Part shown: positions 1-43,716 of the stretch, one piece after another
Numbering within the stretch: position 1 is the first letter of the stretch
Layout: every line of letters begins with the position of its first letter
Source of the DNA: Alphaproteobacteria bacterium
GTDB taxonomy: Bacteria; Pseudomonadota; Alphaproteobacteria; RF32; CAG-239
NCBI GenBank assembly: GCA_045613125.1
Contig: JAZLAM010000022.1
Span: 77,813 to 141,812, forward strand
Direction: 5' to 3'
DNA: 64,000 bases
Made by a program: the position numbers and the translations under genes
Notes under the pieces: model-generated
The model's input: the letters and a program-made list of their open reading frames with translations, nothing else
What the model was told of the DNA's origin: nothing
The model's database searches: none

Positions 1-381
1 AAGTTTCCTTTCAATTTCTGCTGCCAAACCAAAAGCAAAAGCCAAAACTTTGCTTTGTATATCATTACCCAAGCGATAATTTTCTTTTATAGTCCAGACT
101 TGGCACTCTTTATTAAGACACGTTTCTAAAATATGCATCACTTCAAGCAGAGAACGCCCTAGACGAGATATTTCACATGAAATTAAAATATCGCCACTTG
201 TTAATTCATCTAATAATTTTCCCAATTTTCTCATGCGCAACGATTTTCGAGATGAAATTTTTTCTTCCACCCATTTATTAATTTTCAACTTATTAAGTTT
301 AGCAAAACGTTCCAACTCATATTTTTGATGCTCTAATGTTTGTTTTGAAGAACTTACACGAATATAACCAATTACAGACAT
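1..381 (-). CDS. Serine recombinase (resolvase/invertase family), N-terminal catalytic domain; C-terminal HTH part runs off the window
   Basis: Reverse-strand translation from ATG at 379-381: MSVIGYIRVSSSKQTLEHQKYELERFAKLN...GDILISCEISRLGRSLLEVMHILETC. The YIRVSS.(K)Q catalytic-serine motif and RLGRS are typical of resolvase/invertase. An RBS-like AAAGGAT lies upstream. Not in the ORF track because it is truncated by the window edge. Confidence 0.7.
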   Translation of the reverse strand, partial: MSVIGYIRVSSSKQTLEHQKYELERFAKLNKLKINKWVEEKISSRKSLRMRKLGKLLDELTSGDILISCEISRLGRSLLEVMHILETCLNKECQVWTIKENYRLGNDIQSKVLAFAFGLAAEIERKL

Positions 382-484
382 TTTTTATCCTTTCTAATTT
401 TTTTAATTTAAACAGTGAAAATTGTTTATCAAATGCAAGTGTTAAAAATAGCGTTCAAAAAAGTAGAAAATTTTCAAAAATATG

Positions 485-511
485 AAATAAAATATTGACA
501 ATATTTTATTT
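485..511. promoter_or_regulatory. 27-bp perfect palindrome (AAATAAAATATTG a CAATATTTTATTT) centred on a TTGACA -35-like hexamer, in the divergent region between the recombinase and the operon
   Basis: Read directly: two 13-bp arms around a single central A. TTGACA at 495-500, then a 17-nt spacer and TAACAT at 518-523. Candidate operator or recombinase binding site. Confidence 0.35.
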
Positions 512-529
512 ATGAAATAACATACAGAT

Positions 530-644
530 GTTCGGGTGCTTGAGGGCAATAGGCACGAACAAACAGACTTGGCCAGTCATCGGTAGTAAAAAGAAGGGAT
601 AGTCCCTTTTTGATGAGTTGGCCTTTCGAAAGAGAGGTTTTTTT
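530..644 (+). promoter_or_regulatory. GC-enriched, structured 5' leader upstream of the six-gene operon (possible riboswitch or attenuator)
   Basis: About 115 nt, noticeably GC-richer than its surroundings. Nested complementarity ggccagtcatc...gatgagttggcc encloses agggatagtccct followed by a U-run. The RBS AGAGAGG at 631-637 lies 7 nt before the ATG at 645. Confidence 0.3.
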
Positions 645-1175
645 ATGTTTAAATATCAACATGGTTTTTGTATCATTCGCTGTCAGCCTTTTCATATCGG
701 TCATGACAGATTGATTAAGAAAATGATGGAAGAATGTGCATATGGCACTGTTGTAATCGGTTCTGCTCAAGAAAGCGGAACTGAAAAAAATCCGTTACCT
801 TATTTTGTTCGCAAAAAAATGATACAAAATGTTTGGCGAAACAATGAAGCTTATGCACGCTTAAGAATCGTCGGAATAAAAGACATAAATAACATACCTT
901 GGAATATACACGTATTAGAAACTATTAAAAAAGAGCAATCAGATAAACCTAAACCTGACATAATTTATGTTGGCGATGAAAGTGAATATTTATTTTTCAA
1001 AAATGATGTTCCAAATGTTGGTATTTGTTCTCGAACCACACAAAACTTTCCGTTTTTATCAGGAAATATGGTTCGTGATATGATTGCTTTAAAAGATATA
1101 AGATATAAAGAATTTGTTCATCCGGAAAATATCGAGCTTATTGAAAAAAGCTTTTATGAGGATGAAAAAAACTAG
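645..1175 (+). CDS. NadM-type (archaeal-like) NMN/nucleotide adenylyltransferase-like cytidylyltransferase-fold protein
   Basis: MFKYQHGFCIIRCQPFHIGHDRLIKKMM matches the (R/G)FQPFH.GH nucleotide-binding signature of NadM-type NMNATs. ATG at 645 has a good RBS; the track start at 618 is a TTG extension. Confidence 0.55.
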   Translation: MFKYQHGFCIIRCQPFHIGHDRLIKKMMEECAYGTVVIGSAQESGTEKNPLPYFVRKKMIQNVWRNNEAYARLRIVGIKDINNIPWNIHVLETIKKEQSDKPKPDIIYVGDESEYLFFKNDVPNVGICSRTTQNFPFLSGNMVRDMIALKDIRYKEFVHPENIELIEKSFYEDEKN

Positions 1176-1268
1176 AAGAAACAATGGTGTTTCTTACCAT
1201 GATTTGGGTCTTGTAGGGACAGTCGAGACAAATCATAATTTAACAACCTACTGTCGAGGAGAAAAAAT

Positions 1269-2462
1269 ATGAATAAAATTAATCAAAACATTCGTTATGT
1301 TGGCACATCTGCTTTTGGCATCAGAATGCCAATTATTCTTGAAGGTGATGACATTAGCAACATCATATCAAACACATTAATTGAAGCAACAAAAACATCG
1401 TATCAACCACTTATCATAAATAATGGTGATATTATCGGCATTACGGAATCTTTCTTAGCGCGCGCACAAGGAAACTATATCACTTTAGATGATATAGCTA
1501 AAGATGTAGCAAAAAAATTTCCGGAAGGTGACGTTGCCGTTGCTTTTCCAATTCTTTCACGCAACAGATTTGCAAAAATTTTGGAAGGTATAGCAAGAGG
1601 TGTAAAAAGAAAAGTATATGTATGTCTTTCTTATCCTGCCGATGAAGTCGGAAATGCCATAATGGATGAAGATGATTTATTTAATTCGGACATTAATCCT
1701 TATACCGATATAATAACCAAACAAGATTTTCTCAATAAATTTGGGGTTTTTCACCACCCTATTACAGGGTCAGACCATATCAAAATGTATGAAAATATAT
1801 CTGATAACATTGAAGTTGTATTGTTAAACAATCCTAAGGACATCTTAAAATTTACAAAACAAATTATAGTTTCGAGTATTCATATACGTCATCGTCAAAA
1901 ACAAATCTTAATCAAAGAAGGTGCAACGGCCTATACTTTAGATGAAATTTGCAACACTCCGTCACCGACAAGAGGTTGGAGCGAATATGGGGTGTTGGGT
2001 TCTAACTATTCTGATAAAGACAGACTTAAACTATTTCCCAGAAACTCTATGGAATTTTGCCATAATTTACAGCAATTATTAAAAGAAAAAACCGGAAAGC
2101 ATATTGAAGTTATGATATATGGTGACGGTGGTTTTAAGTGTCCTAAAACCAAAATTTGGGAATTTGCCGATCCGGTTGTATCTCCTGGATATACTAAAGG
2201 ATTAGAAGGTATGCCTAATGAAATTAAAATTAAAGCTGTGGCTGATAACAATAAAGATAATCCGGAAGAAGCAATAAAAAAAGCAATAAATGATAAAAAT
2301 AAGGCAAATGGTTTTTATTCTATCGGAACAACTCCAAGACAGATAACTGATTTGTTAGGCTCTCTTTGCGATTTAACAACAGGATCCGGCGAAAAAGGAA
2401 CACCTGTTGTTTACATCAAAGGCTATTTTGATAACTACTTAACCGAAGCTCCTAAAGACTAA
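1269..2462 (+). CDS. Hypothetical enzyme with a possible CofE-like (F420-0:gamma-glutamyl ligase family) fold
   Basis: IRMPIILEGDDISNIISNTLI...NNGDIIGITESFLARAQGNY resembles the CofE N-terminal pattern (GDDLaelI...DGDVvvVt.KivSKAEGR). Weak and from memory only. At 397 aa it is longer than canonical CofE. Confidence 0.3.
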   Translation: MNKINQNIRYVGTSAFGIRMPIILEGDDISNIISNTLIEATKTSYQPLIINNGDIIGITESFLARAQGNYITLDDIAKDVAKKFPEGDVAVAFPILSRNRFAKILEGIARGVKRKVYVCLSYPADEVGNAIMDEDDLFNSDINPYTDIITKQDFLNKFGVFHHPITGSDHIKMYENISDNIEVVLLNNPKDILKFTKQIIVSSIHIRHRQKQILIKEGATAYTLDEICNTPSPTRGWSEYGVLGSNYSDKDRLKLFPRNSMEFCHNLQQLLKEKTGKHIEVMIYGDGGFKCPKTKIWEFADPVVSPGYTKGLEGMPNEIKIKAVADNNKDNPEEAIKKAINDKNKANGFYSIGTTPRQITDLLGSLCDLTTGSGEKGTPVVYIKGYFDNYLTEAPKD

Positions 2463-2473
2463 GGAGACAGAAA

Positions 2474-2992
2474 ATGAGTTTAGATCTTAAAAAGAGATTT
2501 GCAAAAATCTCTTATACCATTCGTCACAAAAAGGCTTTTCTGAAAGTTGAAAAAAAGCTCAGAGGAAAAAACACTTGGAGGGGATATTTGCATGACATCG
2601 ATAAACCTTTTTTATATCTGTCTTTATGGATAAAATTTGAAGACATTCAAAAAATTCATAGAAAACATTGTAAACATCATGTCAGAAATAATCTTACAAA
2701 AACAAAAGATGATCTGATAGATACAATTATAGATTGGGAATGCGCTCACATTACAAAGCCTGATAAACCTCTTAATGCGTATGAAACTTTATTGAAATTT
2801 TACCCTGATAAAAAAGATGAGTTTTTACCGATTATAAGAGAACTTTTACCTGAGCAAATCAAAGAAGCTTGCCTTAAGGAAAAACGCCGAGTTATCACAG
2901 AATATTTACGTTTTCAGTCAAACTCTTTACAGTCTTCGTCACTTCCTAAGGCTTCTCTTATCAAAAGTTATACAACTAATATAGGGAGGTAA
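2474..2992 (+). CDS. Hypothetical protein, candidate HD-domain phosphohydrolase; paralog of the 26411..27310 gene
   Basis: YLHDIDKP resembles the LHDIGK HD motif, with further His/Asp downstream (HRKHCKHH, DTIIDWE). The block DWECAHITKPDKPLNAYETLLKFYP is shared with DWECAAITKPDKPLNAFETALHFYP in the paralog. Confidence 0.35.
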   Translation: MSLDLKKRFAKISYTIRHKKAFLKVEKKLRGKNTWRGYLHDIDKPFLYLSLWIKFEDIQKIHRKHCKHHVRNNLTKTKDDLIDTIIDWECAHITKPDKPLNAYETLLKFYPDKKDEFLPIIRELLPEQIKEACLKEKRRVITEYLRFQSNSLQSSSLPKASLIKSYTTNIGR

Positions 2993-2995
2993 ATT

Positions 2996-3553
2996 ATGAT
3001 AATATCAGAAATAGGAGCAACAGTCTGCGGATTGTTGCAAGGAACTCTTGTGCTTTTTAATAAGCGAAGCAACTGGATTTTCTACATCGCACAAATCATC
3101 TTTTTTCTTATATTTTCATTTACTAACAAGCTTTATGGAGATGTTTTAGGTAACAGTATTTATCTTCTGTTAGGAATAAGCGGATGGATTTTTTGGAAAG
3201 ATGAAAACAAATTCCGTATAAGTATATGTTCATCAAAAGAAAGATTAGTTTATATCTCTGTCATAGTTGCTGGATCAGTAATTCTGTTTTTATTGCTTAA
3301 CAGAACGCAAGATCCCTTACCTTTTATTGACTCCGTTACAACTGCTTCATCTTTTGTGGCAACATATTATATGGTGAAAAAAAAGTTAGACACATGGATA
3401 ATTTGGTTTGTAAACGACATTTGCTATATTGCTCAATACAGTCTTTTGGAAAATCAAGCATACTATCTTATAGGCTTAAACTCTATTTGGACCTTTATGG
3501 CAATTGCTTCATTTTTTAATTGGCTTAAAATCATGAAAGGATACACAAAATGA
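2996..3553 (+). CDS. PnuC-like nicotinamide-riboside/nucleoside transporter family membrane protein
   Basis: About 6 TM helices at 185 aa. NKLYGDVLGNSIYLLLGISGWIFW fits the PnuC W-rich conserved segment (..NIYGWY.W). Translationally coupled to its neighbours. Confidence 0.5.
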   Translation: MIISEIGATVCGLLQGTLVLFNKRSNWIFYIAQIIFFLIFSFTNKLYGDVLGNSIYLLLGISGWIFWKDENKFRISICSSKERLVYISVIVAGSVILFLLLNRTQDPLPFIDSVTTASSFVATYYMVKKKLDTWIIWFVNDICYIAQYSLLENQAYYLIGLNSIWTFMAIASFFNWLKIMKGYTK

Positions 3554-4062
3554 AAAAAATATATTTTGCCGGTAAGTTTAATAAAAAGAAAGCAAAAGAC
3601 ATTTCTTTGGAAGAAGCTTTAATCGATGATTTTCGCTCCAAACTTTTAGGTAGTCCAAAATTACTGACAACTTATCAGGATAATCTTATTATAAATAATA
3701 AGTTTCAATATTTAGGACCGTTTTACTGTGAACAAGCTTCTAACGGAAACTTCACATCAACAGATTGTAATGAAGTGTTAAATGCCGAATATGAGTTTGT
3801 TCAAAAAAGTGACATTTTTGTTGTAGTTTTCGGCGAAAGTTTTTCGGTAGGCTCTGTTGTGGAACTTGGTTGGGCTCTAAACTCGGATAAAAAAATTATA
3901 ATTTTATATCAAGAAGAAAATTCTTGTTACACCATAAAATCAGAATATTGGTTTGCAATTGCCGATGCCATCAAAAAAAGCCCCAATTTAACAATATGTA
4001 AATATAAAAATTATTCTGAAATATCACTCTTAATTCATCAAATTTTAGAAAAGGAAATTTAA
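3550..4062 (+). CDS. Nucleoside 2-deoxyribosyltransferase / Rcl (DNPH1)-like Rossmann-fold N-glycosidase-family protein
   Basis: N-terminal KKIYFAGKF and DIFVVVFGESFSVGSVVELGWALNSDKKIIILY match the NDT/Rcl family, with Glu in the position of the catalytic nucleophile. ATGA overlap with the upstream gene. Confidence 0.55.
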   Translation: MKKIYFAGKFNKKKAKDISLEEALIDDFRSKLLGSPKLLTTYQDNLIINNKFQYLGPFYCEQASNGNFTSTDCNEVLNAEYEFVQKSDIFVVVFGESFSVGSVVELGWALNSDKKIIILYQEENSCYTIKSEYWFAIADAIKKSPNLTICKYKNYSEISLLIHQILEKEI

Positions 4063-4063
4063 C

Positions 4064-4885
4064 ATGAAATACAAAGAATTTGAACTGATTTTATCATCAT
4101 TTAAATGTAATAAAAATTGTCCATATTGTACCGCTAAAATAACAAAGTGGCCACACGTTAATGATAAAATTGACAATCTTGAAGAAAAACTTCAATATTT
4201 AAAAGAAAAAGATATAAGCTTCAGATATTTTATATTTTGCGGTAATGGTGAACCATCTTTGCATAGTTTTGAAACCATAAATAAAATTGTTCAAGCTACT
4301 CGAAATGTAAATATTTTTGATGAAAAACGTTTCCAATCATCAGGAAATATTTTTCTTGAACAAGAAAAATTTAATTTAATTAAAGATGATTTTACCATTG
4401 AGATAACCAGAGTGGATTTTGACAGCCAAAAAGATATGAAAGTTTTAGGATATACCCAAGACTATATTAACTCTCCTTTATTTTCTCAAGCAAATGTACG
4501 TCTAAATTATGTCATGCTGAAAAATAAAAGTTTTGATGAATATTTAGTGGAAATAAAAAAATATATCGACACATATCCAAACATCAAAACCGTAAGCTTA
4601 AAAACCTTAAATTTAAATACACTTAATGGAAAAATTGATAATCCTTATTCTCGGTGGATTCTTGAACATGCCCTAACCAAAGATGATGCAAAAAATGTTA
4701 TAGATTTTATAAGCAATCATGCAAATGTGATTCATCAAGATGATAAATTTTTTGATAGAATTGAATGGAATTATAAGGGTGTACCAATTACATTTTATAT
4801 AAAAAAATTATCTTACGGCATATCTAACATAGTATATTATGGAGGCGAACTTGTAGACTATCATCTGAATAAATTAAAGATTTAG
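4064..4885 (+). CDS. Small radical SAM enzyme (CX3CX2C; viperin/MoaA-like core)
   Basis: CNKNCPYCTAK (Cys15/19/22), FCGNGEPSL (GGEP-type SAM motif) and a downstream SSGN motif. 273 aa. Starts 2 nt after the upstream gene. Confidence 0.7.
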   Translation: MKYKEFELILSSFKCNKNCPYCTAKITKWPHVNDKIDNLEEKLQYLKEKDISFRYFIFCGNGEPSLHSFETINKIVQATRNVNIFDEKRFQSSGNIFLEQEKFNLIKDDFTIEITRVDFDSQKDMKVLGYTQDYINSPLFSQANVRLNYVMLKNKSFDEYLVEIKKYIDTYPNIKTVSLKTLNLNTLNGKIDNPYSRWILEHALTKDDAKNVIDFISNHANVIHQDDKFFDRIEWNYKGVPITFYIKKLSYGISNIVYYGGELVDYHLNKLKI

Positions 4886-4970
4886 TTTGTAAGAGTTTCT
4901 CTTTATTAAAACACTTGATTTTTAGAATTCATTCATTAAAATAAGCGCTATAAACAGGAGAATAAAAATT

Positions 4971-5984
4971 ATGAAAAAAATCACATTTGTTTTGAGCATT
5001 ATGATGTTAACATCAAACATCGGATACGCTCAGTCAACTTTAGACTTAACCGAAGCCGATTTTTTAGCTCAAATAAATCAATCTGATTTAAAAGAAAAGT
5101 TTGAACTGCTTGATATCAATAGTGATAAAGCTGTTTCCATTACCGAAATTCAAGAACTGATTAATGGTTTAGACCTTATGACGGAGTTTGAAGGAAACAC
5201 AAAAGAAGAAACCGTAGAACAAATTATGCAAGTGTATCAAAATTCTGATACCAATCCAGATAATCTTCTTAAAGATGATGAGATAAATTTGTTTGTAAAC
5301 GATGTTAACATCATTTTTGCAAAGCAACAATTTAAAAAAATGGACCGTAACGGTGATGGCGTTTATGACTATAATGATGTTCCTCCTTTGGAAGAAAGCT
5401 TGGAAAAATTAAAAGAAGCGACAAAAAAATTACAAGAAGCATCTGATAATCTTAATGCTATAGATCAAGAAGTTTTTACTAATAATTTCGTCAAAGGGAT
5501 TAGCGGATCTGTTGCAAAAGAAGACTTCTATCAAATGGATAAAAATCATGATGGATGCGTTACCGTAGATGAGTATGCAGATTACAGAGTTTTGGCCCAA
5601 GACCGAATTGATGAATTTGATGATACTGATACGAATATTGTGCTTACAAGAGATAATTTTGTAGGCTTGTACGCTCATGAAAAGAAACAAAATCCAAATT
5701 GTTTAACTATAGAAGAATATATAAAAAATCAAAAGGCAATTTTTGATGATATAGATAACATGGATGATTTTGAAAATGAAGAAGAATTTGCCATAAAAAT
5801 ATATAAAGATATGGATACCAATCAAGATAATAAATTAACTCTTGAAGAGTATGTAAACTATAATATGATAACAAATGAAATGACAAAAGATGAGCATATC
5901 AATATGTTTAATTCTTATGAAGGGGCTTCAAAAGGTTGGCTAACTAAAGAAGAATTTATTGAATCTTTCATGATGGCTGATTAA
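4971..5984 (+). CDS. Secreted protein with four canonical EF-hand Ca2+-binding loops
   Basis: Signal peptide MKKITFVLSIMMLTSNIGYAQ. Loops DINSDKAVSITE, DRNGDGVYDYND, DKNHDGCVTVDE and DTNQDNKLTLEE fit D-x-[DN]-x-D-G-x-x-x-x-x-[ED]. Confidence 0.6.
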   Translation: MKKITFVLSIMMLTSNIGYAQSTLDLTEADFLAQINQSDLKEKFELLDINSDKAVSITEIQELINGLDLMTEFEGNTKEETVEQIMQVYQNSDTNPDNLLKDDEINLFVNDVNIIFAKQQFKKMDRNGDGVYDYNDVPPLEESLEKLKEATKKLQEASDNLNAIDQEVFTNNFVKGISGSVAKEDFYQMDKNHDGCVTVDEYADYRVLAQDRIDEFDDTDTNIVLTRDNFVGLYAHEKKQNPNCLTIEEYIKNQKAIFDDIDNMDDFENEEEFAIKIYKDMDTNQDNKLTLEEYVNYNMITNEMTKDEHINMFNSYEGASKGWLTKEEFIESFMMAD

Positions 5985-18606: not shown

Positions 18607-18683
18607 CGGATTGTAGTTCAGCCTGGTAGAACGCTTCGTTCGGGTCGAAGAGGTCGCTAGTTCGAATCTAGTCAATCCGACCA
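18607..18683 (+). tRNA. tRNA-Pro (anticodon CGG)
   Basis: CGGATTG acceptor stem, anticodon loop TTCGGGT, T-arm GGTCGCTAGTTCGAATCTAGTC, encoded CCA. Confidence 0.8.
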
Positions 18684-18690
18684 AATAAAA

Positions 18691-18716
18691 CCACCCTTCA
18701 GGGTGGTTTTTTGTTT
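18691..18716 (+). terminator. Rho-independent terminator after tRNA-Pro (CCACCCTTCAGGGTGG + T-run)
   Basis: Perfect 6-bp stem, 4-nt loop, TTTTTTG. Confidence 0.6.
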
Positions 18717-18773
18717 ACTTAATTGATTTTTATTGTTAAAGTATAAATCGTTTTATCATCAAGCGAGTTTCAA

Positions 18774-20627
18774 GTGACTAAAAAATTTCTATCAGAAAAT
18801 ACAGAATTAATGAAAGAATGGGATTGGGAAGCAAATGAAGGCTTAAATCCCAATGAAATTACATGTGGTAGTCATAAAAAAGTTTGGTGGAAATGCTCAA
18901 AATGTGGATATAAGTGGTGTCAAGCTGTTGTTGATATTTCTAGAAATAAAATAGAATCATGTTGTCCTGCTTGCACTAATAGGGTTTTAATAAAAGGAAA
19001 AAATGATTTAGCGACGATGTATCCTGAAATTGCTAAAGAATGGGATTTTTATAAAAATAAGGACTTAACTCCAAATAATGTAACATTCAAATATTGTAAA
19101 AAAGTTTGGTGGCTATGCCCTAAAGGACATAGATATGAACAACGTATTGACAATAGAACCCTAAGACACACTAGTTGTCCGTACTGTTCAAATACGTGGG
19201 TTTTGAAAGGTTTTAATGATTTAGCTACAATAAATCCTAATTTAGCTAAAGAATGGCATCCATCTAAGAATGGATGTTTAACTCCTTATGATGTTACAGC
19301 AAATAGCACCAAAAAGGTTTGGTGGTTATGTCCTGTCGGGCACGAATATATAAGAAGCGTACATCAAAGACATGCTGCTTATACTAATTGTCCCACCTGT
19401 GATTCTCGTAAACGTACATCTTTTCCTGAACAAGCTGTCTATTTTTATCTTAAAAAGCTTTATCCTGATGCCATTTCAAGATATAAGATAAATGAAACAT
19501 CAAGTATGGAGCTAGATATATATATTCCTTCTATACAATTTGCGGTTGAATACGATGGAGCATCATGGCATAAAACAGAAGACTGCCATAACCGTGAGAT
19601 AAAAAAATATCAATTTTGTAAAAAATACGGAATAACATTAATAAGAATAAAAGAACAAAATGGTATATATTGGGATGATGTCTGTGATAACATTTATTAT
19701 ATAAAACCAGTAAAACGTAATGATTTATTTGAATTAGAAAAAATTATCAATTATGTTTTAAATTCAATATGTTCATCTATTGATGATTTGCTAGAAGCGA
19801 CTAGAAGCAATATTAACCCTTTGGATTATTCTAAAAGCATACAGCATATTCCATTACCAAAGCCTTTTAAACTTTTTCGCCATAAAATAGATGTAAACAT
19901 AGAAAGAGATAAAAATGAAATTCAAGGATATGTGTTCAAAATTGAAAACTCTTTGGCAGATTTACGACCTGATGTAGCAAAAAAATGGAATTATGATAAA
20001 AATGGAAATTTAACACCTGAAATGTTTAGTGTTGGCTCAGAAGAAATAGTATGGTGGAAATGTCCCAAATGTGGGCATGAATGGAAAATTTCTATAAACA
20101 GCATGACAGGAAAGAAAAGAGGAAATGGATGTGCTATATGTGCAAAAATAGAAAGAGCACAGAAAAGCGTTATAACAAAAATTAAAAATGGAAATTCTTT
20201 AGCTGAGAAAAACCCACAAAAAGCAGAATTGTGGCATCCATCTAAAAATGGAAATTTAACTCCTTATGATGTTACAGCATGTAGTTCTAAACAAATTTGG
20301 TGGTTATGTAAAAAATGTGGATACGAGTGGCAAATGAGCCCTCATAATAGAAAGAAAGGACAAGGTTGTCCCCATTGTGCTGGTAAAGTTCCTTTAGTAG
20401 GTGTTGACGACCTAGCATCAACACATCCAAAATTAACCAACGAATGGAATTATGACAAAAATATCAATATTGCACCTCAAAATGTTAAAGCAGGAAGTGA
20501 TAGAATTGTTTGGTGGAAATGTTCAAAATGTGGCTTTGAGTGGCAAGCTGTTGTTAGATTTAGAGTAAAAGGCTTAGGTAAATGTCCTCATTGTTCTAAA
20601 AAACAATTGGATTTAGGCCTAGAATAA
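18774..20627 (+). CDS. Zinc-ribbon-repeat protein: 3x treble-clef zinc-ribbon (PF14311/DUF4379-like) + DUF559/Vsr-like endonuclease-fold domain + 3x zinc-ribbon
   Basis: Six repeats of W.(W/P/H).SKNG.LTP.(D/N)VT..S.K.VWW.C.KCG(Y/H)EW....R....GCP.C. The central block FAVEYDGASWHKTEDCHNREIKKYQFCKKYGITLIRIKE resembles the DUF559/very-short-patch-repair restriction-endonuclease-like fold. GTG start. Confidence 0.6.
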   Translation: MTKKFLSENTELMKEWDWEANEGLNPNEITCGSHKKVWWKCSKCGYKWCQAVVDISRNKIESCCPACTNRVLIKGKNDLATMYPEIAKEWDFYKNKDLTPNNVTFKYCKKVWWLCPKGHRYEQRIDNRTLRHTSCPYCSNTWVLKGFNDLATINPNLAKEWHPSKNGCLTPYDVTANSTKKVWWLCPVGHEYIRSVHQRHAAYTNCPTCDSRKRTSFPEQAVYFYLKKLYPDAISRYKINETSSMELDIYIPSIQFAVEYDGASWHKTEDCHNREIKKYQFCKKYGITLIRIKEQNGIYWDDVCDNIYYIKPVKRNDLFELEKIINYVLNSICSSIDDLLEATRSNINPLDYSKSIQHIPLPKPFKLFRHKIDVNIERDKNEIQGYVFKIENSLADLRPDVAKKWNYDKNGNLTPEMFSVGSEEIVWWKCPKCGHEWKISINSMTGKKRGNGCAICAKIERAQKSVITKIKNGNSLAEKNPQKAELWHPSKNGNLTPYDVTACSSKQIWWLCKKCGYEWQMSPHNRKKGQGCPHCAGKVPLVGVDDLASTHPKLTNEWNYDKNINIAPQNVKAGSDRIVWWKCSKCGFEWQAVVRFRVKGLGKCPHCSKKQLDLGLE

Positions 20628-23785: not shown

Positions 23786-24130
23786 ATGACTAATATTAAA
23801 ATGGAACTATCTGTTGCTGATATGAGTGCAAATGTTCATCATATACAAAAGGTAATTAAAGGAAGAAAAAAACCATTAGAAATTGAGATATATGGTCAGA
23901 AAGTTTTGTTTGTTTATGATAATATTGAAATGCCTATATCTATAAAAGATATTAATACAAGTAATAATATAATACTTGCCAAGTATGTATTAATCAATCC
24001 ATTATCGCTATTTAGCTTAATTACAAAATATAAAAAGTATGATTTTTTTAAAATATCATTTGAAGATATAGGTTTAAGGATAATGATAGATAATACTGTT
24101 TTTAGCTTTTGTGCTAAAAAAGTTATGTAA
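23786..24130 (+). CDS. Hypothetical protein (its 5' part is duplicated at 22010-22125)
   Basis: 114-aa ORF; no motif recognised. Confidence 0.35.
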   Translation: MTNIKMELSVADMSANVHHIQKVIKGRKKPLEIEIYGQKVLFVYDNIEMPISIKDINTSNNIILAKYVLINPLSLFSLITKYKKYDFFKISFEDIGLRIMIDNTVFSFCAKKVM

Positions 24131-24237
24131 AATGTATTGATATAAAAACAATCATACGTTAGCATGTTCAGATAATGTTTAAACAGACCTGTTAGTTATT
24201 CAGATAATAAATATGAGTAGGTGTTAAAGGGTTTTAG

Positions 24238-24777
24238 ATGATTAATTTAATTAGTTTTTTTAATAAATGCAAAGATGAGAAAAATGACAATATATCTATA
24301 TTGCACGATTTAGTATCCGAAGCAAAAGTGTATGTGAAAAAGAATTTTTGCCCTTGGAAAGATGATGATTATCCCGAGGTAACAGAATTTTATCAAATAT
24401 CGTACGATGGTATTTTAGAAGATGAAGATTTAGAGCCAAGCTTTTCACAAATGCTTTTTAAGTTTATAAAACAACAAGGAATATCTGAAACAGATTGTTA
24501 TAAAAATGCAAATATTGATAGAAAATTATTTTCGAAAATAAGAAGCGATGATGAGTATCAGCCTAAAAAAACAACAGTTTTTGCATTTATTATCGGTTTA
24601 AAATTAAATTTAGATGAAGCAAAAAAATTATTGGAGTGTGCCGGATATTCTTTATCCCACAGTAAAAAACAAGACATAATAATAGAATATGCAATCAAAA
24701 AACAAATTTATGATATAAACATGGTTAATGAAATTTTATATACTTTAGAATGTCAAACTTTAGGTAGTAAAGAGTAA
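24238..24777 (+). CDS. Putative helix-turn-helix (XRE-like) regulatory protein
   Basis: FSQMLFKFIKQQGISETDCYKNANIDRKLFSKIRSDD...TVFAFIIGLKLNLDEAKKLL resembles a Cro/C1-type HTH. Confidence 0.4.
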   Translation: MINLISFFNKCKDEKNDNISILHDLVSEAKVYVKKNFCPWKDDDYPEVTEFYQISYDGILEDEDLEPSFSQMLFKFIKQQGISETDCYKNANIDRKLFSKIRSDDEYQPKKTTVFAFIIGLKLNLDEAKKLLECAGYSLSHSKKQDIIIEYAIKKQIYDINMVNEILYTLECQTLGSKE

Positions 24778-24808
24778 AATTTTCCAATAAGAATAATGTA
24801 TTATAAAA

Positions 24809-24833
24809 ATCCCCCTCATATTAATGAGAGGGA
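24809..24833. terminator. Bidirectional terminator hairpin ATCCCCCTCAT-ATTA-ATGAGAGGGAT + T-run
   Basis: Lies between the convergent HTH gene and thrS. A related hairpin occurs at 26382-26404. Confidence 0.45.
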
Positions 24834-24841
24834 TTTTTGTT

Positions 24842-26119
24842 TTATAAATCTAAGCTTCTGTTTCTTATTTTTTCAGACACTCGTTCCATAAAATCGGCAA
24901 GAGAAACATTGTTTATTTGCTTAGAGTTTCTTAATCGAACGGAGATATTGTTATTTTCCACTTCTTTATCGCCTACAATAACAATATATGGAATTTTTTT
25001 CTTAACAGCATCTCTAATTTGATAAGAAATCGTATTACCGGAAATATCAGCTTCTGCACGTATATCATTTTCTGACAATTGCTGTTGAATCTGAAGAGCT
25101 ACACTTTGGTGCCTGTCAGATATTGGCAAAATTTTAACCTGAACAGGTGATAACCAAACCGGTAATTTACCTTCGCATTGTTCCAGATAAACACCTATAA
25201 AGCGTTCGATAGAACCTAAAATTGCACGATGTAACATAATCGGCACATGCTTTTGTCCGTCTTCACCGATGTAGAACATTCCCCACTTTTCCGGTAAATT
25301 TAAATCAAGTTGTATCGTCATACATTGCCATTCTTTACCGTTTTTATCGATTGCTTTAACATCTATGGCCGGTCCGTAAAATTTTGCACCGCCGATATCT
25401 ATGTCATATGGAATGTTTTTATCTTTTAACACTTGTTCGACTGATTGTTCTGCCATCTGCCAAATTGGTTCATTATCAATATATTTATCTTTTTTGCTTT
25501 GCAAATCTCTGATAGAAAAATAAACTTTGAATTTATCATAACCAAAAACTTTATTGATGGCAAAACCGAAATCAAACACTTTTGAAAGTTCTTCCATAAA
25601 TTGATCTTGGCGACAGATGATATGTGCATCATCTTGCGTAATTGATCGAACACGTAACAATCCTTGCAAACCGCCGGATGCTTCATAACGATAAACATTT
25701 CCCAATTCGCAATATTTAATCGGCAACTCTTTATACGAGTGTATAGAAGAATTATAAATTGCCACATGAAAAGGACAGCTCATCGGTTTCACATAATAAG
25801 CGCCCTGCTCTTCTTTGTCTTTTAACGACATATCCATTAGCGGATACATACAATCGGCAAAATGTTCCAAATGGCCGGATTTTTCCCATAACTGTTTTAA
25901 TCCCACAACTGGAGAATATACATATTTATATCCGGCTTTTTGATGTTCTTTTTTCCAAAAAGATTCAATTTCGTTTCGTATAATTGCACCATTCGGATGC
26001 CATAAAGCCAGTCCGGAACCTATATAATCGTTGAAAGAAAATAAATCTAATTCTTTACCGATACGACGATGGTCGCATTCGGACACACTTTGTTTTTCAT
26101 CTATATTAATGTTATTCAT
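24842..26119 (-). CDS. thrS: Threonyl-tRNA synthetase-like, catalytic core + anticodon-binding domain only (lacks N-terminal TGS/editing domains)
   Basis: HRRIGKELDLF, LWEKSGHLEHF, KPMSCPFHVAIY, RVRSITQDDAHIIC (class II motifs of ThrRS). 425 aa versus about 640 for canonical bacterial ThrRS. AT-rich non-coding sequence lies upstream. Confidence 0.75.
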   Translation of the reverse strand: MNNINIDEKQSVSECDHRRIGKELDLFSFNDYIGSGLALWHPNGAIIRNEIESFWKKEHQKAGYKYVYSPVVGLKQLWEKSGHLEHFADCMYPLMDMSLKDKEEQGAYYVKPMSCPFHVAIYNSSIHSYKELPIKYCELGNVYRYEASGGLQGLLRVRSITQDDAHIICRQDQFMEELSKVFDFGFAINKVFGYDKFKVYFSIRDLQSKKDKYIDNEPIWQMAEQSVEQVLKDKNIPYDIDIGGAKFYGPAIDVKAIDKNGKEWQCMTIQLDLNLPEKWGMFYIGEDGQKHVPIMLHRAILGSIERFIGVYLEQCEGKLPVWLSPVQVKILPISDRHQSVALQIQQQLSENDIRAEADISGNTISYQIRDAVKKKIPYIVIVGDKEVENNNISVRLRNSKQINNVSLADFMERVSEKIRNRSLDL

Positions 26120-36533: not shown

Positions 36534-39500
36534 TTATTTACGTTTTGTAATAGTTCCTTTTGAAACAATTTCAGCACCTGTTGATATTTTTAAGAAAGAT
36601 TCTGTTTTTTCCGTATTCTCAACAGTCTTATTTTTGTTTTGCGGAGACAATGGTTTGGTAATTATTCCACTTGTAGCCATTTTAGATTTGTATGCAACAG
36701 TATTATCTATTGCTTTTATAATTGGTTTTTGTTCAATTTGTTCCTCTATTTTGCTTTCTTTATTTTGTAGCAAAACAGATTCTTTTTTTGAATCTTCAGA
36801 TACGTGCAATACACCTGTTTTTTCTGTTTCAGAACTTAAATGTTCTTTTTTATAGGTAGTATTTTTGACATCTTCATTATTTTGTTGCGCAGCATCTTCT
36901 GTAATAAATGGTTTTCTAACAGATTGTTTTACTGTCTTTTCCGGTTGCTTTGACATATCTGTTTGAACATCATTAACTTTAATTAACAAAGGAGGTTCCG
37001 ATAATAGCGATGTTGTATTTTTCTCTGATACATTTACATCTTCTTTTACCTTTAGTTCATTATCAGTTTTTTGCCCTTCTTCAACAATCATAATTTTTGA
37101 TTTGATTTTTGAACTTTCTTCAATTACGGCAGATTTATCCGGTAACACACTTTTATCATCGGCTAAAGGTTCTCCTTCTTGTACAGCCTTAAGAGCCAAC
37201 TGTTTTTTCAGCGCTTCATCTTCTTCTAACCTTACTATATTTTTTGCATATTCAAACAAATTTTCCACTGAGGAATTAAGATTAATTATTTCTGAATTTG
37301 TTTTTTCTAAAATTTCTTTTATCATCTGATAATCAAGCTCTATTTCCTTAATTTTATTAGAATTATTAATCTCATTTATAAGACCTAGAGCTTTATTATG
37401 CAGATTTGCAATACTACGTAGAGATGTTTCTATCTTATTTTTATAATCTGTTGCTTGCGGTTCATTATCTAAAATTATTAAAGACTTTATCTCTATCAGA
37501 CGCTTAACATATACATCTAAAGTATCTTGATAGCTGATACCCTTTTTCAATGAATTGACATAAATATTGTTAATATTATCGTACATACCATTAGAAATAT
37601 TTTTAAGATCGGCAATATAGTTTTCATCTAATTCTCTATCTAAATCCGCCAATTGTGTATCAAAGATTTCAGTATTTGTATTTGTAACATCTATATCTCC
37701 TTCATCAAACTCTTGTTTAGCGCGTTGTTGTAATTCTTCTAACTGAAATTTCATATCTTGTGCAACAATATTTATACTCTTGTAGTTTGCTCTACTTATA
37801 GCATTACTACTTGTTTGAGAATATTTTTTAAATCGTGGAAAAATTTCCGTATCTATCAACTCTAGCAACTCTGAAACTTTTTCTTGCGCCACAGACATTC
37901 TTTTTTGCAAATCTTTCTGACGATTTTTTTCCGCAATTTCTTTTTCTATACGAACCTTTTCCCAATAACTGTCATATTTATTTTTTAAAGCTAAACTATT
38001 AATAACAACATTAGGATTATTTAGACTACCGGTCCATTGATATTCTATCGGAACAATTTTATCTTTCAGTTGATTAAATGTTAAAGTAAAATCAGAATTT
38101 ATGGTCCAATCAGATAAATTAACCATTCCAGAAGCTATTATTTTTGCTTGTTCGGTTTCTAATAAACTATTAACTATTGAAATATTACCATCTGTGATAT
38201 CAAAATCCGTTACTATCCTATAAAATAAACTTTCTCCGTTTTGCAAATTTGTTCTGAGCATATCATATAAATTATCTGAATGCGTACGATGTCTGACATC
38301 TTCTTCAATAGCCAATAAATTCCATCCTTTAAATTTTGTATCGGTAAAATCCATAGAAACAGAAGCGTTTAACCCTTTTATAAAGTTCATAGCAGATGAT
38401 ACGGGAGCTTCAAATTTTATATTAGAATTAACCTTACCTGATAAAAATTCATATCTCTTTCCACCTATTTTTGATACATCATAATCCTGAATTTCAAAAT
38501 TACCTTTAATTTTTGCGGCAGAATTAACATCAAGAGATACATTTGCCTTTATTGGAGCATCTTTAATTTGGGCTGTTATATTATCAATAGTAATCAAGCC
38601 TTTCTTAATTTCAATACCTGCAGAAACATTTTCGAAATCTTTATTTTTTATACTAAATATATCAGCACTGAATTTTCCCGCTAAATCAAATTTTTTATAA
38701 ATATCATAATTTATAGGTATTGTATCAAAAACCGGTTGTTCTAAAAAGTTCAATGAATTATCCACAGTCTTTGTCTTTTTAACTGATTTCACAGCTGAAT
38801 TTTCTGGATTATAAATAAAACGATCAAATTCAAATTTGTTTGCATGCATAGTCGCATTTATTTGTGGATAGCCATCATTTATCACAGATATATCACCTTT
38901 AAAATTATTTGATCCGACAAATGCGTCAATATCTTTTGCACTCCAATTTTGAGAATTGCCTTCTATATTGCCTTTAAATGTGAAAATATTAGCCGTGATA
39001 TATTGAGGTCTGTAGTTAAAACCGATACGATTTATAAAATCAACAAAATCCGCAGAACGAAACTCTAAACTTCCTTTATAATTTAGTTGATTGTTTTCGT
39101 TATACAAACGTCCGGAATACACCGAACTTAATTTATCTGATGTAGTAACAGCTTTAATATTTATGCCATTTATATCACCTGTTACAATACCCTTTGCATT
39201 AAGATTATCAGTTTCTCTTATAAATTGTAAAAAAGGCATATCTAATGGAACTTTTTTCAAAAAATTTGTCATTTTTGAAGTTTTGAAATTATACTTAACA
39301 TCTTTAAAATGTGGGATATCTGACATCTCTAAAATATCTCCGGACATATTAAATAAAGCATCGTTAATATTTTCAATATTCAGTTTTTCAATTTTTACAA
39401 CATCGTTATCTGATATAAAACTTAATGTGTTTTTTTCAAAACTTGAGTTATTATATATACCTAATCCAAGCTTGATATGTGCAGCTATGTCATAATCATT

Positions 39501-42411: not shown

Positions 42412-43716
42412 ATGTTTCCTCAAGAAATTATCCGCAAAAAAAGAGATGGTAAAACCTTAAGTTCCGAAGAAATAAGTTTCTTCGTAAAAGGTATAACGGA
42501 CGGTTCAATTGCAGATAGCCAAACAGCAGCTTTGACAATGGCAATTTTCCTAAACGGTTTTGATAAAAAAGAAACTGTTGATTTAACATTGTCTATGCGA
42601 GATTCCGGCGATGTCTTAAAATGGGATTTAAACGGTCCGGTTATTGATAAACATTCCAGCGGTGGTGTAGGAGATAAGGTTAGCCTGATGTTAGCTCCAA
42701 TTTTAGCATCGTGTGGCGGTTTTGTTCCGATGATTTCGGGTCGAGGCTTGGGACACACCGGCGGAACGCTTGACAAGTTTGACTCCATACAAGGCTATAA
42801 CACATTACCGACAAACGAATTGTTTGTTAAAACAGTTGAAGATGTGGGATGTGCCATAATCGGGCAAACCGGAAATTTGGCTCCGGCAGATAAAAAAATT
42901 TATGCAATCAGAGATGTATGCGCCACAGTCGAATCCATTAATTTAATCACAGCTTCAATTTTATCTAAAAAATTGGCCGCCGGATTAGACTATTTGGTTA
43001 TGGACCTAAAATGCGGTAACGGTGCTTTTATGGATAATGTAAATGATGCATTGGTTCTTGCTCGTTCTATTGTAGATGTTGCAAACGGTGCAGGAACAAA
43101 AACAACCGCACTTATCACTAATATGAGCGAGGTTTTAGGCTATACGGTTGGTAATGCTTTAGAGGTTAAAGAAGCCGTTGATTATTTGAAAAATCAAAAT
43201 ATCAATAAGCGTTTAGATCTTGTCACAAAAGAACTATGTGCCGAACTTTTGGTTTCTTGCGGTTTATATAAAAACAAAGATGATGCTTTGGCAAAAGTTT
43301 GCAAAGTTTTAGCAAACGGTGAAGCTCTCGAAAAATTTGCTAAAATGGTTTCTATGCTTGGTGGTCCGGCAGATTTCACAGAAAATCCTGAAGCATATAT
43401 GCCAAAAGCACAAATTATCAGACCTGTGTTTGCTGATAAGAAAGGATATATTTCTGCTATGCAAACAAGAGATATCGGTATGTTAATCGTAGGTTTAAAA
43501 GGCGGACGTGTTCATCCTGATCAAAAGCTTGATTACGCAACCGGATTTAGCAGTTTTTGCCAAGTTGGAGATTATATTGATGAAAAAACTCCGCTTGCTT
43601 ATATCCATGCACAAAGCGAGGAAGAGTATCAAAAAACAGCTGACGAACTTAAAAAACTTGTCCAAATTGAAGACGAATATAAGCTTTCTCCGGTGATTAT
43701 TGATACGGTTAAATAA
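42412..43716 (+). CDS. deoA: Thymidine/pyrimidine-nucleoside phosphorylase
   Basis: IRKKRDGKTLS.EEI..FV.G...G...D.Q..A..MAI, SGRGLGHTGGTLDK, and a C-terminal domain. Confidence 0.8.
   Translation: MFPQEIIRKKRDGKTLSSEEISFFVKGITDGSIADSQTAALTMAIFLNGFDKKETVDLTLSMRDSGDVLKWDLNGPVIDKHSSGGVGDKVSLMLAPILASCGGFVPMISGRGLGHTGGTLDKFDSIQGYNTLPTNELFVKTVEDVGCAIIGQTGNLAPADKKIYAIRDVCATVESINLITASILSKKLAAGLDYLVMDLKCGNGAFMDNVNDALVLARSIVDVANGAGTKTTALITNMSEVLGYTVGNALEVKEAVDYLKNQNINKRLDLVTKELCAELLVSCGLYKNKDDALAKVCKVLANGEALEKFAKMVSMLGGPADFTENPEAYMPKAQIIRPVFADKKGYISAMQTRDIGMLIVGLKGGRVHPDQKLDYATGFSSFCQVGDYIDEKTPLAYIHAQSEEEYQKTADELKKLVQIEDEYKLSPVIIDTVK

Follow-up and report, generated by a model that had tools for sequence, protein, structure and literature searches.

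A conserved six-gene operon of gut Alphaproteobacteria with a riboswitch-like leader and a possible place in the NAD regulon

Several described systems resemble parts of the locus reported here. The NAD+-II riboswitch is the pnuC motif of Streptococcus, and NAD+-I is the nadA motif (PMC7749635). Like them, the candidate RNA that we describe is a cis-encoded 5′ leader before NAD salvage and transport genes (pnuC lies in its operon), its Shine-Dalgarno (SD) sequence takes part in an alternative pairing, and the genes that it accompanies suggest an NAD-family ligand (PMC7749635). However, neither Rfam model matches the candidate leader, which is about 100 to 125 nt long rather than about 50 to 65 nt, joins a two-part P1 (GG bulge and AGGGC loop) to a further hairpin and to a long-range helix set against a terminator, and has gut Alphaproteobacteria as its hosts. 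NAD salvage is also controlled by NrtR, an ADP-ribose-responsive, Nudix-related repressor. Its regulon holds operons of the same kind (nadM, pncA, pncB, nadE, and pnuC), but NrtR is a DNA-binding protein, whereas the putative regulator here is an RNA structure. In the PnuC-NadR systems of the Haemophilus/Salmonella type, a PnuC importer is coupled to an NMN adenylyltransferase, as at this locus. In contrast, the present locus lacks a ribosylnicotinamide kinase domain, its adenylyltransferase is of the archaeal NadM type and not NadR, and it encodes four additional enzymes (CofE-like, HD-like, nucleoside 2-deoxyribosyltransferase [NDT]-like, and radical SAM). The missing kinase domain upholds the view of an earlier note on this DNA that the genes are not a PnuC-NadR salvage system, and its separation of them from F420, queuosine, and dpd clusters is also supported. 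Queuosine salvage in Clostridioides uses a transporter, the nucleoside hydrolase QueK, and the radical SAM queuine lyase QueL (the lyase is structure 6p78). The likeness lies in the overall design, in which an importer and an N-glycosidase work with a radical SAM enzyme to cut a salvaged nucleoside or base down to a precursor that the cell can use.

The window, which is the whole 64,000-nucleotide stretch of DNA that we analyzed, carries six close-packed, co-directional genes (g1 to g6) on the plus strand at 645-4885. In order, they encode a NadM-type protein, a long CofE-like protein, a small HD-like protein, PnuC, an NDT/CMP-glycosidase-like protein, and a 273-amino-acid radical SAM protein. 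This order is retained across about 26 species-level gut alphaproteobacterial genomes, and nearly every species of the lineage has the operon, whose distribution is not patchy. The six genes are a genuine conserved operon of uncultured gut Alphaproteobacteria. Gene models and conservation bear out what the earlier note had proposed, namely, a co-directional cluster of nucleotide-handling enzymes in one operon, and its statement that this is no named pathway also stands, as none matches the six-gene set.

Directly ahead of g1 is a structured 5′ leader of about 125 nt (type A; 524-650, plus strand). Covariance model R1 scores 127.7 bits there and 101 to 135 bits in 26 related loci, and a type-A leader precedes the operon in every case. 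An Rfam search with the leader returned zero matching families, and the leader is a previously unreported, riboswitch-like element. In the type-A alignment (A3), 98% of cells are paired, compensatory changes occur at 7 pairs, and the covariation score was matched by 0 of 500 shuffles. The stem of the P1 hairpin (529-561) has two parts, GG is bulged on its 5′ side, and its loop, AGGGCAA, is conserved; covariation is seen at 6 of the 12 pairs in type A and at 7 of the 12 in a sister form, type B. The local hairpin P2′ (566-578; GACU-UGGCC-AGUC) has a loop and 3′ side that make up the switching strand, and its stem varies to GAAC/GUUC in locus L089 and AAAC/GUUU in type B. In an alternative long-range helix (570-623), UUGGCCAGUCAUC (570-582) pairs with GAUGAGUUGGCC (612-623) and encloses a variable hairpin (593-610). 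This helix is part of both the minimum-free-energy fold and the RNAalifold consensus, with cross-type compensation (GGCC:GGCC, UGGCCGG:CUGGUCA, and GAGCCR:YGGCUC). A terminator-like, SD-sequestering hairpin (620-644) is formed by GGCCUUUC-GAAA-GAGAGGUU plus a U7 run; the SD sequence GAGAGG (632-637) lies inside its 3′ arm, the AUG follows at 645, and the type-B counterpart is 100% paired.

The P2′ loop is able to pair with the 5′ arm of the terminator-like hairpin, and fold prediction and covariation indicate that two mutually exclusive folds are possible. In the first, strand UUGGCC is held in the long-range helix, the terminator is weakened, and the SD sequence is free; the helix shares 2 to 4 nt with the 5′ arm of the terminator-like hairpin and, in our model, would be the anti-terminator conformation. 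The second combines the local hairpin with the full terminator/SD-sequestering hairpin. We suggest that the leader may be a riboswitch that senses NAD+ or a closely related metabolite, the candidate ligands being NAD+, NMN, NaMN, NR, nicotinamide/nicotinate, and ADP-ribose. The default fold would be ON, and ligand bound at the P1/P2′ part would free the terminator arm and turn the operon OFF, or the polarity may be the reverse. It is unlikely, in our estimate, that the leader is instead an attenuator that depends on a protein or acts by kinetics alone, such as one for NadM-like autoregulation or for another RNA-binding regulator. Such an attenuator would suit the NadM-like gene found directly downstream of every leader of both types and the leaderless third NadM-like copy in L081 (4916-5446), but the size, the invariant unpaired loop and bulge nucleotides, and the covarying stems follow the classical riboswitch layout, an alternative helix that overlaps the terminator/SD hairpin is a classical riboswitch trait, and NMNATs are not known to bind RNA.

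The type-B leader provides the link to NAD. Within the same lineage, it precedes Preiss-Handler operons (nadM paralogue-pncA-pncB-nadE): nadM2-pncA-pncB-nadE or nadM2-nadE follows it in L026, L081 to L088, and L092, and such operons follow it in 70 of 80 metagenome loci (of the other 10, 6 are truncated and 4 are false matches inside cysK). In L024, a leaderless pncA-nadM-pncB-nadE operon is adjoined by a bona fide NrtR (NUDIX plus NrtR_WHD), which stands where relatives carry the type-B leader, and the type-A leader is kept in the same locus. Because the sister form of its leader precedes the classical NAD salvage operon, the six-gene operon most likely serves vitamin B3/NAD metabolism; we give a probability of roughly 55% to its being an NAD-regulon unit that takes up a pyridine nucleoside and processes it. 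That the six genes form one transcription unit within the NAD (vitamin B3) regulon has, in our view, somewhat better than even odds. Among the functions listed in the earlier note, salvage of an NAD-type cofactor is the one that the evidence favors.

The operon reads as two joined modules, NadM-CofE-HD plus PnuC-NDT-radical SAM. By its motifs and profiles, g1 (645-1175) is a probable paralogue of the archaeal-type (NadM-type) NMN/NaMN adenylyltransferases: HxGH (QPFHIGH), GSAQ...NP, and DIN-NIPW align with MJ0541, and identity to the NadM copy of pncA-pncB-nadE operons is 47 to 49%. The product of g2 (1269-2462; 397 amino acids) is a long CofE-like member of the F420_ligase family and putative GTP-dependent amide ligase that matches PF01996 (2.9e-49), with the 218-position profile stretched across residues 17 to 385. 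The small HD-like g3 (2474-2992), related to DUF5662, is a putative metal-dependent phosphohydrolase and is optional in relatives. The strong PF01996 match of g2 could be accommodated by a pathway to a flavin, deazaflavin, or F420-like cofactor with PnuX-type import of riboflavin or FO, tailoring by RibL-like and CofE-like enzymes, and a radical SAM enzyme in place of CofG/H, as could the riboflavin transporters of the PnuC family and the archaeal FAD synthetase that belongs to the nucleotidyltransferase superfamily of g1. We find such a pathway barely credible, since g2 reaches only 36 to 44 bits against the NCBIfam CofE equivalogs (cutoffs, 181 to 274), cofC, cofD, and FO synthase genes are absent from the approximately 30 loci examined, the best solved relatives of g1 are all NMNATs, the leader is common to pncA-pncB-nadE, and the Rfam search found no FMN riboswitch. 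Moreover, g2 orthologues of about 50% identity stand alone in Firmicutes, where we found no conserved or NAD-related neighbors and no riboswitches, which also points against the NAD reading.

PnuC-NDT-radical SAM is a separate module; in gut Firmicutes, the triad is collinear at 57, 57, and 70 to 72% identity. A PnuC-family nucleoside transporter, of the nicotinamide-riboside type by model, is encoded by g4 (2996-3553), which matches PF04973 (9.2e-36) and scores 70.6 bits against the NR-transporter equivalog TIGR01528, whose low cutoff (42.45) may let in other PnuC subfamilies. Profile and structure matches suggest that g5 (3550-4062) is a nucleoside 2-deoxyribosyltransferase or nucleotide N-glycosidase-like enzyme, with the CMP/hydroxymethyl-CMP N-glycosidases 4jen (2e-6), BlsM, and MilB as its best solved relatives. 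The radical SAM enzyme g6 (4064-4885) belongs to a small distinct family and groups structurally with MoaA/viperin-type cores, as the earlier note had supposed. Its family includes fusions with NDT in either order (P0325, P0336, and P0338) and, in some members, with cytidylate kinase.

A radical SAM core of the MoaA/viperin/BlsE type together with a nucleotide N-glycosidase-fold protein recalls both viperin/pVip with its nucleotide kinases and the BlsM/MilB plus BlsE pathways to peptidyl-nucleoside antibiotics, and the kinase fusions add to the likeness with viperin/pVip. This locus differs from the antibiotic pathways in having no glycosyltransferase and no antibiotic cluster, and from both in its importer and NAD-type regulation. 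An antiviral or toxic-nucleotide system, in which a kinase-less pVip-like enzyme would make a chain-terminating nucleotide and the remaining genes would provide it or render it harmless, had been offered as an option earlier and is highly improbable. Viperin sequence models fail on g6 (NCBIfam viperin, 20 bits against a cutoff of 180), the pVip HMM match is weak and partial (8.7e-6, residues 14 to 84), and MoaA, SuiB, and Tes score equal to or above viperin. A defense-model search of the operon genes gave no significant match, no other operon gene matching, and the importer, the porin found in relatives, and the NAD-type leader point to nutrition. The presence of the operon in nearly every species and the lack of a conserved recombinase beside it also argue against defense.

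The cytidylate kinase fusions and the CMP-glycosidase relatives of g5 point to pyrimidine, not pyridine, nucleotides. They would fit salvage of a deoxynucleoside or modified pyrimidine nucleoside from RNA/DNA turnover, with PnuN-like import, NDT-like base exchange or removal, and remodeling of the nucleotide by the radical SAM enzyme; the NAD link would then arise solely from a module appended to a nadM operon. A Tmk-like P-loop protein follows some Firmicutes triads, and in lactobacilli a PnuC-like protein and NDT are a predicted deoxynucleoside salvage pair (PMC7749635, which cites PnuN). However, the triad is co-transcribed behind the leader class of pncA-pncB-nadE, g4 clears the NR-transporter model, and the Firmicutes triad is adjoined by PncC (TIGR00199; 90.8 bits, cutoff 68.9) or by an NrtR-type wHTH protein (PF21906; 1.8e-14), the latter coming after the triad in Clostridia. 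No Nudix domain is detectable in this NrtR-like neighbor, and NrtR-family regulators govern non-NAD pathways too. On balance, we consider non-pyridine salvage doubtful.

If the operon is an NAD-regulon unit, module 1 (NadM-type, CofE-like, and sometimes HD-like) would convert a pyridine mononucleotide to a dinucleotide and would add one amide-forming and one dephosphorylating step. Module 2, often followed by an OprB porin, would import and process a pyridine (nicotinamide-type) riboside. Judging by the NDT-radical SAM fusions, the glycosidase-like and radical enzymes may work one after the other on a single nucleoside or nucleotide, yielding a base or nucleotide that would feed NAD synthesis. 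Known NAD salvage offers no precedent for the radical step, and none of the known NAD pathways calls for an enzyme of the radical SAM, CofE-like ligase, or NDT-like kind. The operon encodes no nicotinamide-riboside kinase, so the NR-to-NMN-to-NAD route is incomplete as encoded.

Upstream, a promoter predicted by consensus match (TTGACA-17-TAACAT; 495-523, plus strand) would start transcription immediately upstream of the leader, and a TTGACA box is also visible at the same distance upstream of the leader in related loci. Its −35 box is overlapped by a perfect 13+13 palindrome, AAATAAAATATTG c CAATATTTTATTT (485-511), which neither the 97%-identical relative L001 nor the other loci compared contain; the palindrome is specific to this genome and outside the conserved system. 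The earlier note had read the locus as a recombinase-adjacent, acquired island. The serine recombinase (resolvase N-terminal domain; 1-381, minus strand, cut by the window edge) adjoins the operon elsewhere only in the near-identical L001, which lacks the palindrome, the flanks differ in almost every genome, and the GC comparison that the note suggested found the operon ordinary, all of which speaks against an island. The secreted EF-hand protein downstream (4971-5984, plus strand) is not conserved with the operon; in relatives, its place is taken by an OprB-family porin, which follows the operon in 11 loci. This porin, the leader RNA at 524-650, and the two-module build are additions to the features given in the earlier note.

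Six co-directional open reading frames lie at 645-4885 of the window on the plus strand, with gaps of 93, 11, and 3 nt, a 4-nt overlap, and then a 1-nt gap between them. In order, they encode a NadM-type adenylyltransferase (g1), a CofE-like protein (g2), an HD-like protein (g3), PnuC (g4), a nucleoside deoxyribosyltransferase-like protein (NDT-like, g5), and a radical SAM protein (rSAM, g6). An earlier note made from the sequence alone had placed the six frames at exactly the coordinates found here, and profile searches reproduced every one of its family calls for these genes. Using g2 as a query against species-representative genomes, we recovered 29 gut MAGs named "Alphaproteobacteria bacterium", from human, ruminant, and rabbit hosts, and 51 mostly Firmicutes genomes. 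The order g1-g2-g3-g4-g5-g6 is retained in about 26 alphaproteobacterial loci at 53 to 97% identity. Among the variants, L015 and L018 have g1-g2-g3 only, L024 and L028 have the operon as far as g4, L008 and L016 are without g6, L007, L089, and L090 are without g3, and L011 to L013 have g2 alone, adjoining adk.

The earlier note had also described a recombinase-adjacent island and proposed a comparison of GC content. The window has a GC content of about 33% and carries the housekeeping genes lptD, infB, adhE, recJ, dnaG, and that for glycogen synthase; run against it, the operon showed no difference (0.31 versus 0.33). Genes flanking the operon vary in nearly all of the genomes compared, and among relatives a resolvase adjoins it in L001 only, the resolvase of L018 to L021 lying upstream at varying distances on the same strand. 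These comparisons do not support the island description. Because gene order is kept across so many loci while the flanks vary and the GC content is ordinary, the operon is genuine, and it is old in the alphaproteobacterial lineage. In 11 relatives (L002 to L004, L008, L010, L016, L017, L022, L023, L026, and L029), an OprB-family porin of about 366 amino acids (PF04966 at 3.4e-22) directly follows the rSAM or NDT gene; that position is filled by a secreted EF-hand protein in the window (4971-5984) and in L001. A perfect palindrome of 13+13 nt at 485-511 extends over the operon promoter's -35 box and might serve as an operator or as a site for a recombinase. Since it is present neither in L001, which is 97% identical, nor in other loci, it is strain specific and lies outside the conserved system.

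When the 200 nt upstream of g1 were aligned, the promoter-proximal DNA was variable, and the last 120 nt or so up to the g1 start codon formed a block of near-invariant and covarying stretches. This block is a structured leader RNA, here called type A (524-650), preceded by a promoter-like TTGACA-17-TAACAT (495-523). It consists of a two-part hairpin, P1 (529-561), in which GG is bulged on the 5' side and the loop reads AGGGCAA, a local hairpin, P2', GACU-UGGCC-AGUC (566-578), a variable hairpin closed by CAUC/GAUG, and a terminator/Shine-Dalgarno (SD) hairpin, GGCCUUUC-GAAA-GAGAGGUU (620-639), which has the Shine-Dalgarno sequence as its 3' arm and after which come U7 and the AUG at 645. In the minimum-free-energy fold, UUGGCCAGUCAUC (570-582) pairs with GAUGAGUUGGCC (612-623) and the terminator is cut to a 4-bp remnant; the long-range pairing and the full terminator/SD hairpin are mutually exclusive conformations. 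We also considered a start at TTG 618 (MAFRKRGFF, 618-644). What is conserved there is the terminator hairpin, whose translation yields this apparent extension, and because the frame is broken in several relatives, the real g1 start is ATG 645.

A covariance model of the leader (R1) found a single copy in the window at 127.7 bits (next best, 14 bits) and, in 26 loci, one copy apiece ahead of g1. These 26 genomes make up the type A survey; the metagenome scan covered only the type B leader described below, since a DNA pattern for both types was not specific enough. The type A alignment (A3) has 98% of its cells paired, with compensatory changes in 7 pairs, 6 of them in P1. Its covariation score was reached by 0 of 500 shuffles, and slid controls were 32 to 49% paired. 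The leader matched nothing in Rfam; on the isolated 201-nt region, E values up to 10 still returned no riboswitch family, NAD+-I and NAD+-II included. Kissing between the P1 and P2' loops, for which 5 bp could form in some type B and four type A sequences but only 3 bp in most, is no more than speculation.

In the relative L026, R1 gave a second, lower-scoring match upstream of a paralogous NadM-like gene, nadM2. This sister leader, type B, always precedes nadM2-pncA-pncB-nadE or nadM2-nadE, with NadM2 paralogues 46 to 53% identical to g1, and the isochorismatase, NAPRTase, and NAD synthase domains of these operons were confirmed. An exact type B pattern matched 97 stretches of metagenome contigs, from which 80 loci were taken in; 70 of them have a NadM2-led operon, 6 are truncated where the contig stops, and 4 are chance matches in cysK. 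The chance matches to this 39-bit DNA pattern (L109, L142, L171, and L132) fall in a coding stretch reading …EKGLI…IIEPTSGNTG…, so pattern matches need a covariance-model or context filter. Among 17 distinct type B sequences, covariation is seen in 7 of the 12 pairs of P1, pairing in the terminator is 100%, and the long-range GAGCCR:YGGCUC contains one covarying pair (GC in 12, AU in 2, and GU in 2). Type B loci had no Rfam match at gathering score.

The two types were analyzed separately because a joint MAFFT alignment (A4) shifted P1 by one column. Between types, the stem of the local hairpin is compensated from GACU/AGUC through GAAC/GUUC to AAAC/GUUU, and the long-range pairing from GGCC:GGCC through UGGCCGG:CUGGUCA to GAGCCR:YGGCUC. 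In both, the 5' arm of the terminator/SD hairpin shares 2 to 4 nt with the 3' strand of the long-range pairing; in L089 and L090, these elements are adjacent and do not overlap. The leader is thus conserved and covarying with two exclusive folds, and the same leader class sits on a canonical nicotinamide/nicotinate salvage operon. In a human-gut variant of type B, found in L098 and some 25 further loci (L100, L102, and L106 among them), about 150 nt are inserted ahead of the GGCUCC arm of the terminator, after the second hairpin, and the long-range pairing would then span about 200 nt. In L081, nadE is followed, after a terminator-like hairpin of its own, by a third NadM-like gene (4916-5446, 176 amino acids) that has no leader.

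The generic features of a riboswitch are present: a conserved 5' leader, covarying helices, conserved unpaired nucleotides, and an expression platform in which the terminator/SD hairpin competes with an aptamer-linked helix. From these features and the genes it precedes, we infer a candidate riboswitch for a NAD-family metabolite, and the operon would belong to a NAD regulon. The leader may instead work by a protein-dependent mechanism. One relative has NrtR as an alternative: in L024, a pncA-nadM-pncB-nadE operon without a leader lies divergently to a bona fide NrtR gene (NUDIX plus NrtR_WHD), and the type A leader is still found before g1 at the same locus. The only NAD riboswitches described in the literature searched are NAD+-I (nadA) and NAD+-II (the pnuC motif of about 50 to 65 nt in Streptococcus) (PMC7749635); looking there for additional candidates brought up no relevant report.

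We then asked what the six proteins resemble. The g1 protein belongs to the cytidylyltransferase-like superfamily, and its top NCBIfam matches are NMN adenylyltransferases, at scores far below the cutoffs (55.1 versus 127 bits for NF002243 and 53 versus 181 for TIGR01527). All 10 of its PDB matches are archaeal-type NMNATs or NadM-Nudix proteins (1f9a at 1.4e-7, 1ej2, and 2qjo among them). Its (H/T)xGH motif near the N terminus, QPFHIGH (residues 14 to 20), aligns with GRFQPFHKGH of MJ0541, and the segments HxGH, GSAQ..NP, and DIxxNxxW align with solved NMNATs, including the Asn and Trp of DIN-NIPW, which we take to have a role in nicotinamide binding. Judged by sequence, g1 is a divergent NadM paralogue.

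The F420_ligase domain of g2 (PF01996 at 2.9e-49) covers residues 17 to 385 of a 397-amino-acid protein with large insertions, compared with about 250 amino acids for a typical CofE. It scored below the CofE equivalog cutoffs (44.4 versus 274 and 36.3 versus 181 bits), and cofC, cofD, and FO synthase genes were found in none of about 30 loci searched; a role in the F420 pathway is therefore poorly supported. In Firmicutes and in one methanogen, the long CofE-like protein, about 50% identical to g2, is encoded by a gene that stands alone. Comparison of its Firmicutes neighborhoods revealed no conserved neighbors, and no Rfam riboswitch lies upstream of it in 8 diverse loci. L024 has two CofE-like genes, one upstream of the leader (817-2001) and one at the usual place after g1 (2818-4050). 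In g3, the HD-type metal motif H...HD...D is represented by H18, H40-D41, H62, H68-H69, and D87, invariant in 24 homologues; a fold search gave only weak matches. Searches of the PDB with g2, g3, and g6 found nothing useful.

The g4 protein is of the PnuC family (PF04973 at 9.2e-36) and passes TIGR01528 (70.6 bits against a cutoff of 42.45). It is a candidate nicotinamide-riboside transporter, a reading indirectly supported by its regulation in common with pncA-pncB-nadE. For g5, scores were below the family gathering values (26.3 versus 30 and 24.0 versus 28.8 bits), and a Firmicutes orthologue clears PF05014 (32.7 versus 28.8); its closest solved relatives are CMP N-glycosidase (4jen at 2e-6), BlsM, and MilB. 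With its CX3CX2C cluster motif and partial TIM-barrel fold, g6 belongs to the radical SAM superfamily, in a small family, for which 1.84 billion representatives gave 103 clusters at E values up to 1e-3. Its closest relative by structure or sequence is not queuine lyase (QueL), and queuosine salvage was rejected on that ground. No viperin-specific profile matched over the full length of g6, and a PADLOC scan gave only weak partial pVip matches, which leaves the antiviral option raised by the earlier note poorly supported. A phage origin was likewise rejected, the PHROGs matches being to generic cytidylyltransferase, PnuC, and NDT families only. Literature searches for PnuC with CofE and radical SAM, for radical SAM with deoxyribosyltransferase and PnuC, and for DUF5662 found nothing relevant.

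Many close g6 homologues (277 amino acids, 70 to 72% identity) occur in gut Firmicutes, where collinear PnuC-NDT-rSAM triads are 57%, 57%, and 70 to 72% identical to g4, g5, and g6. In one context, the triad lies downstream of L7Ae-rpsL-rpsG-fusA-tuf and is followed by an NrtR-type winged-helix protein (PF21906, 1.8e-14) and Ham1. In another, PncC (TIGR00199, 90.8 versus 68.9 bits) precedes it, and a protein of 298 to 303 amino acids (L196, 7836-8732; L194, 7836-8747) follows, translationally coupled to the rSAM gene. This protein matched nothing in Pfam or NCBIfam; inspected by eye, its N-terminal half (EERKF...LVEV) resembles CYTH proteins and its P-loop, IIEGTDGVGKTT, resembles that of thymidylate kinase. 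The kinase that the module lacks may be this protein, which is present neither in the window nor in the alphaproteobacterial loci. Within the rSAM family, NDT-like and radical SAM domains are fused in either order, and other members join a cytidylate kinase to the radical SAM domain. PnuC-NDT-rSAM is thus a cross-phylum module with Rosetta-stone fusions and NAD-related neighbors.

We propose that a pyridine riboside would enter via the porin and PnuC and be directed towards NAD via the NadM-type enzyme. The NDT-like and rSAM enzymes would act one after the other on the imported nucleoside or nucleotide, with the CofE-like ligase supplying an amide-forming step and the HD-like hydrolase a dephosphorylating one. 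In its full form, this reading makes the 524-650 leader and type B a third, structurally unrelated class of NAD-pathway riboswitch, the triad the agent of a radical-mediated step in anaerobic pyridine-riboside salvage, with chemistry absent from described NAD pathways, and the CofE-like protein a new enzyme that forms an amide on a nicotinate-type nucleotide; we regard it as tentative, with a probability of about 0.3. However, no kinase profile was found in any of the six operon proteins, the ribosylnicotinamide kinase of PnuC-NadR included, as anticipated by the earlier statement that this is not canonical PnuC-NadR salvage. Together with the CMP-type relatives of g5 and the CMP-kinase-rSAM fusions, this absence weakens the pyridine-specific reading and keeps alive the alternative that the triad salvages another nucleoside.

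The finding itself is real; the leader adds interest beyond its original framing, and the loss of the island and of defense subtracts from it. NAD supply is a central dependency of small-genome gut bacteria and an exchange point with the host. If the leader binds a NAD-family metabolite, it is a new riboswitch class; the clear covariation and the more than 60 distinct sequences already in hand make it ready for biochemical work. Should the triad process a pyridine nucleoside, it would define rSAM and NDT-fold chemistry that is missing from current NAD pathway maps and would be shared across phyla in human and ruminant guts. The operon also gives a first functional handle on two orphan families, the long CofE-like proteins, widespread in Firmicutes without F420, and the DUF5662-like HD proteins.

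Elsewhere in the window, a pyrimidine-nucleoside phosphorylase gene (42412-43716) may be relevant to the organism's nucleoside salvage capacity. At 18607-20627, tRNA-Pro(CGG) is followed by a 617-amino-acid protein that consists of six treble-clef zinc-finger repeats of the DUF4379 type (2e-102). The cumulative GC skew peaks near 24 kb, where gene orientation changes from plus to minus (about 24000-26000), which could mark a replication-related strand switch. Finally, a 1,540-amino-acid protein on the minus strand (36534-41156), with an AsmA-family match at its N terminus only, is probably a large protein of the envelope or of lipid transport.
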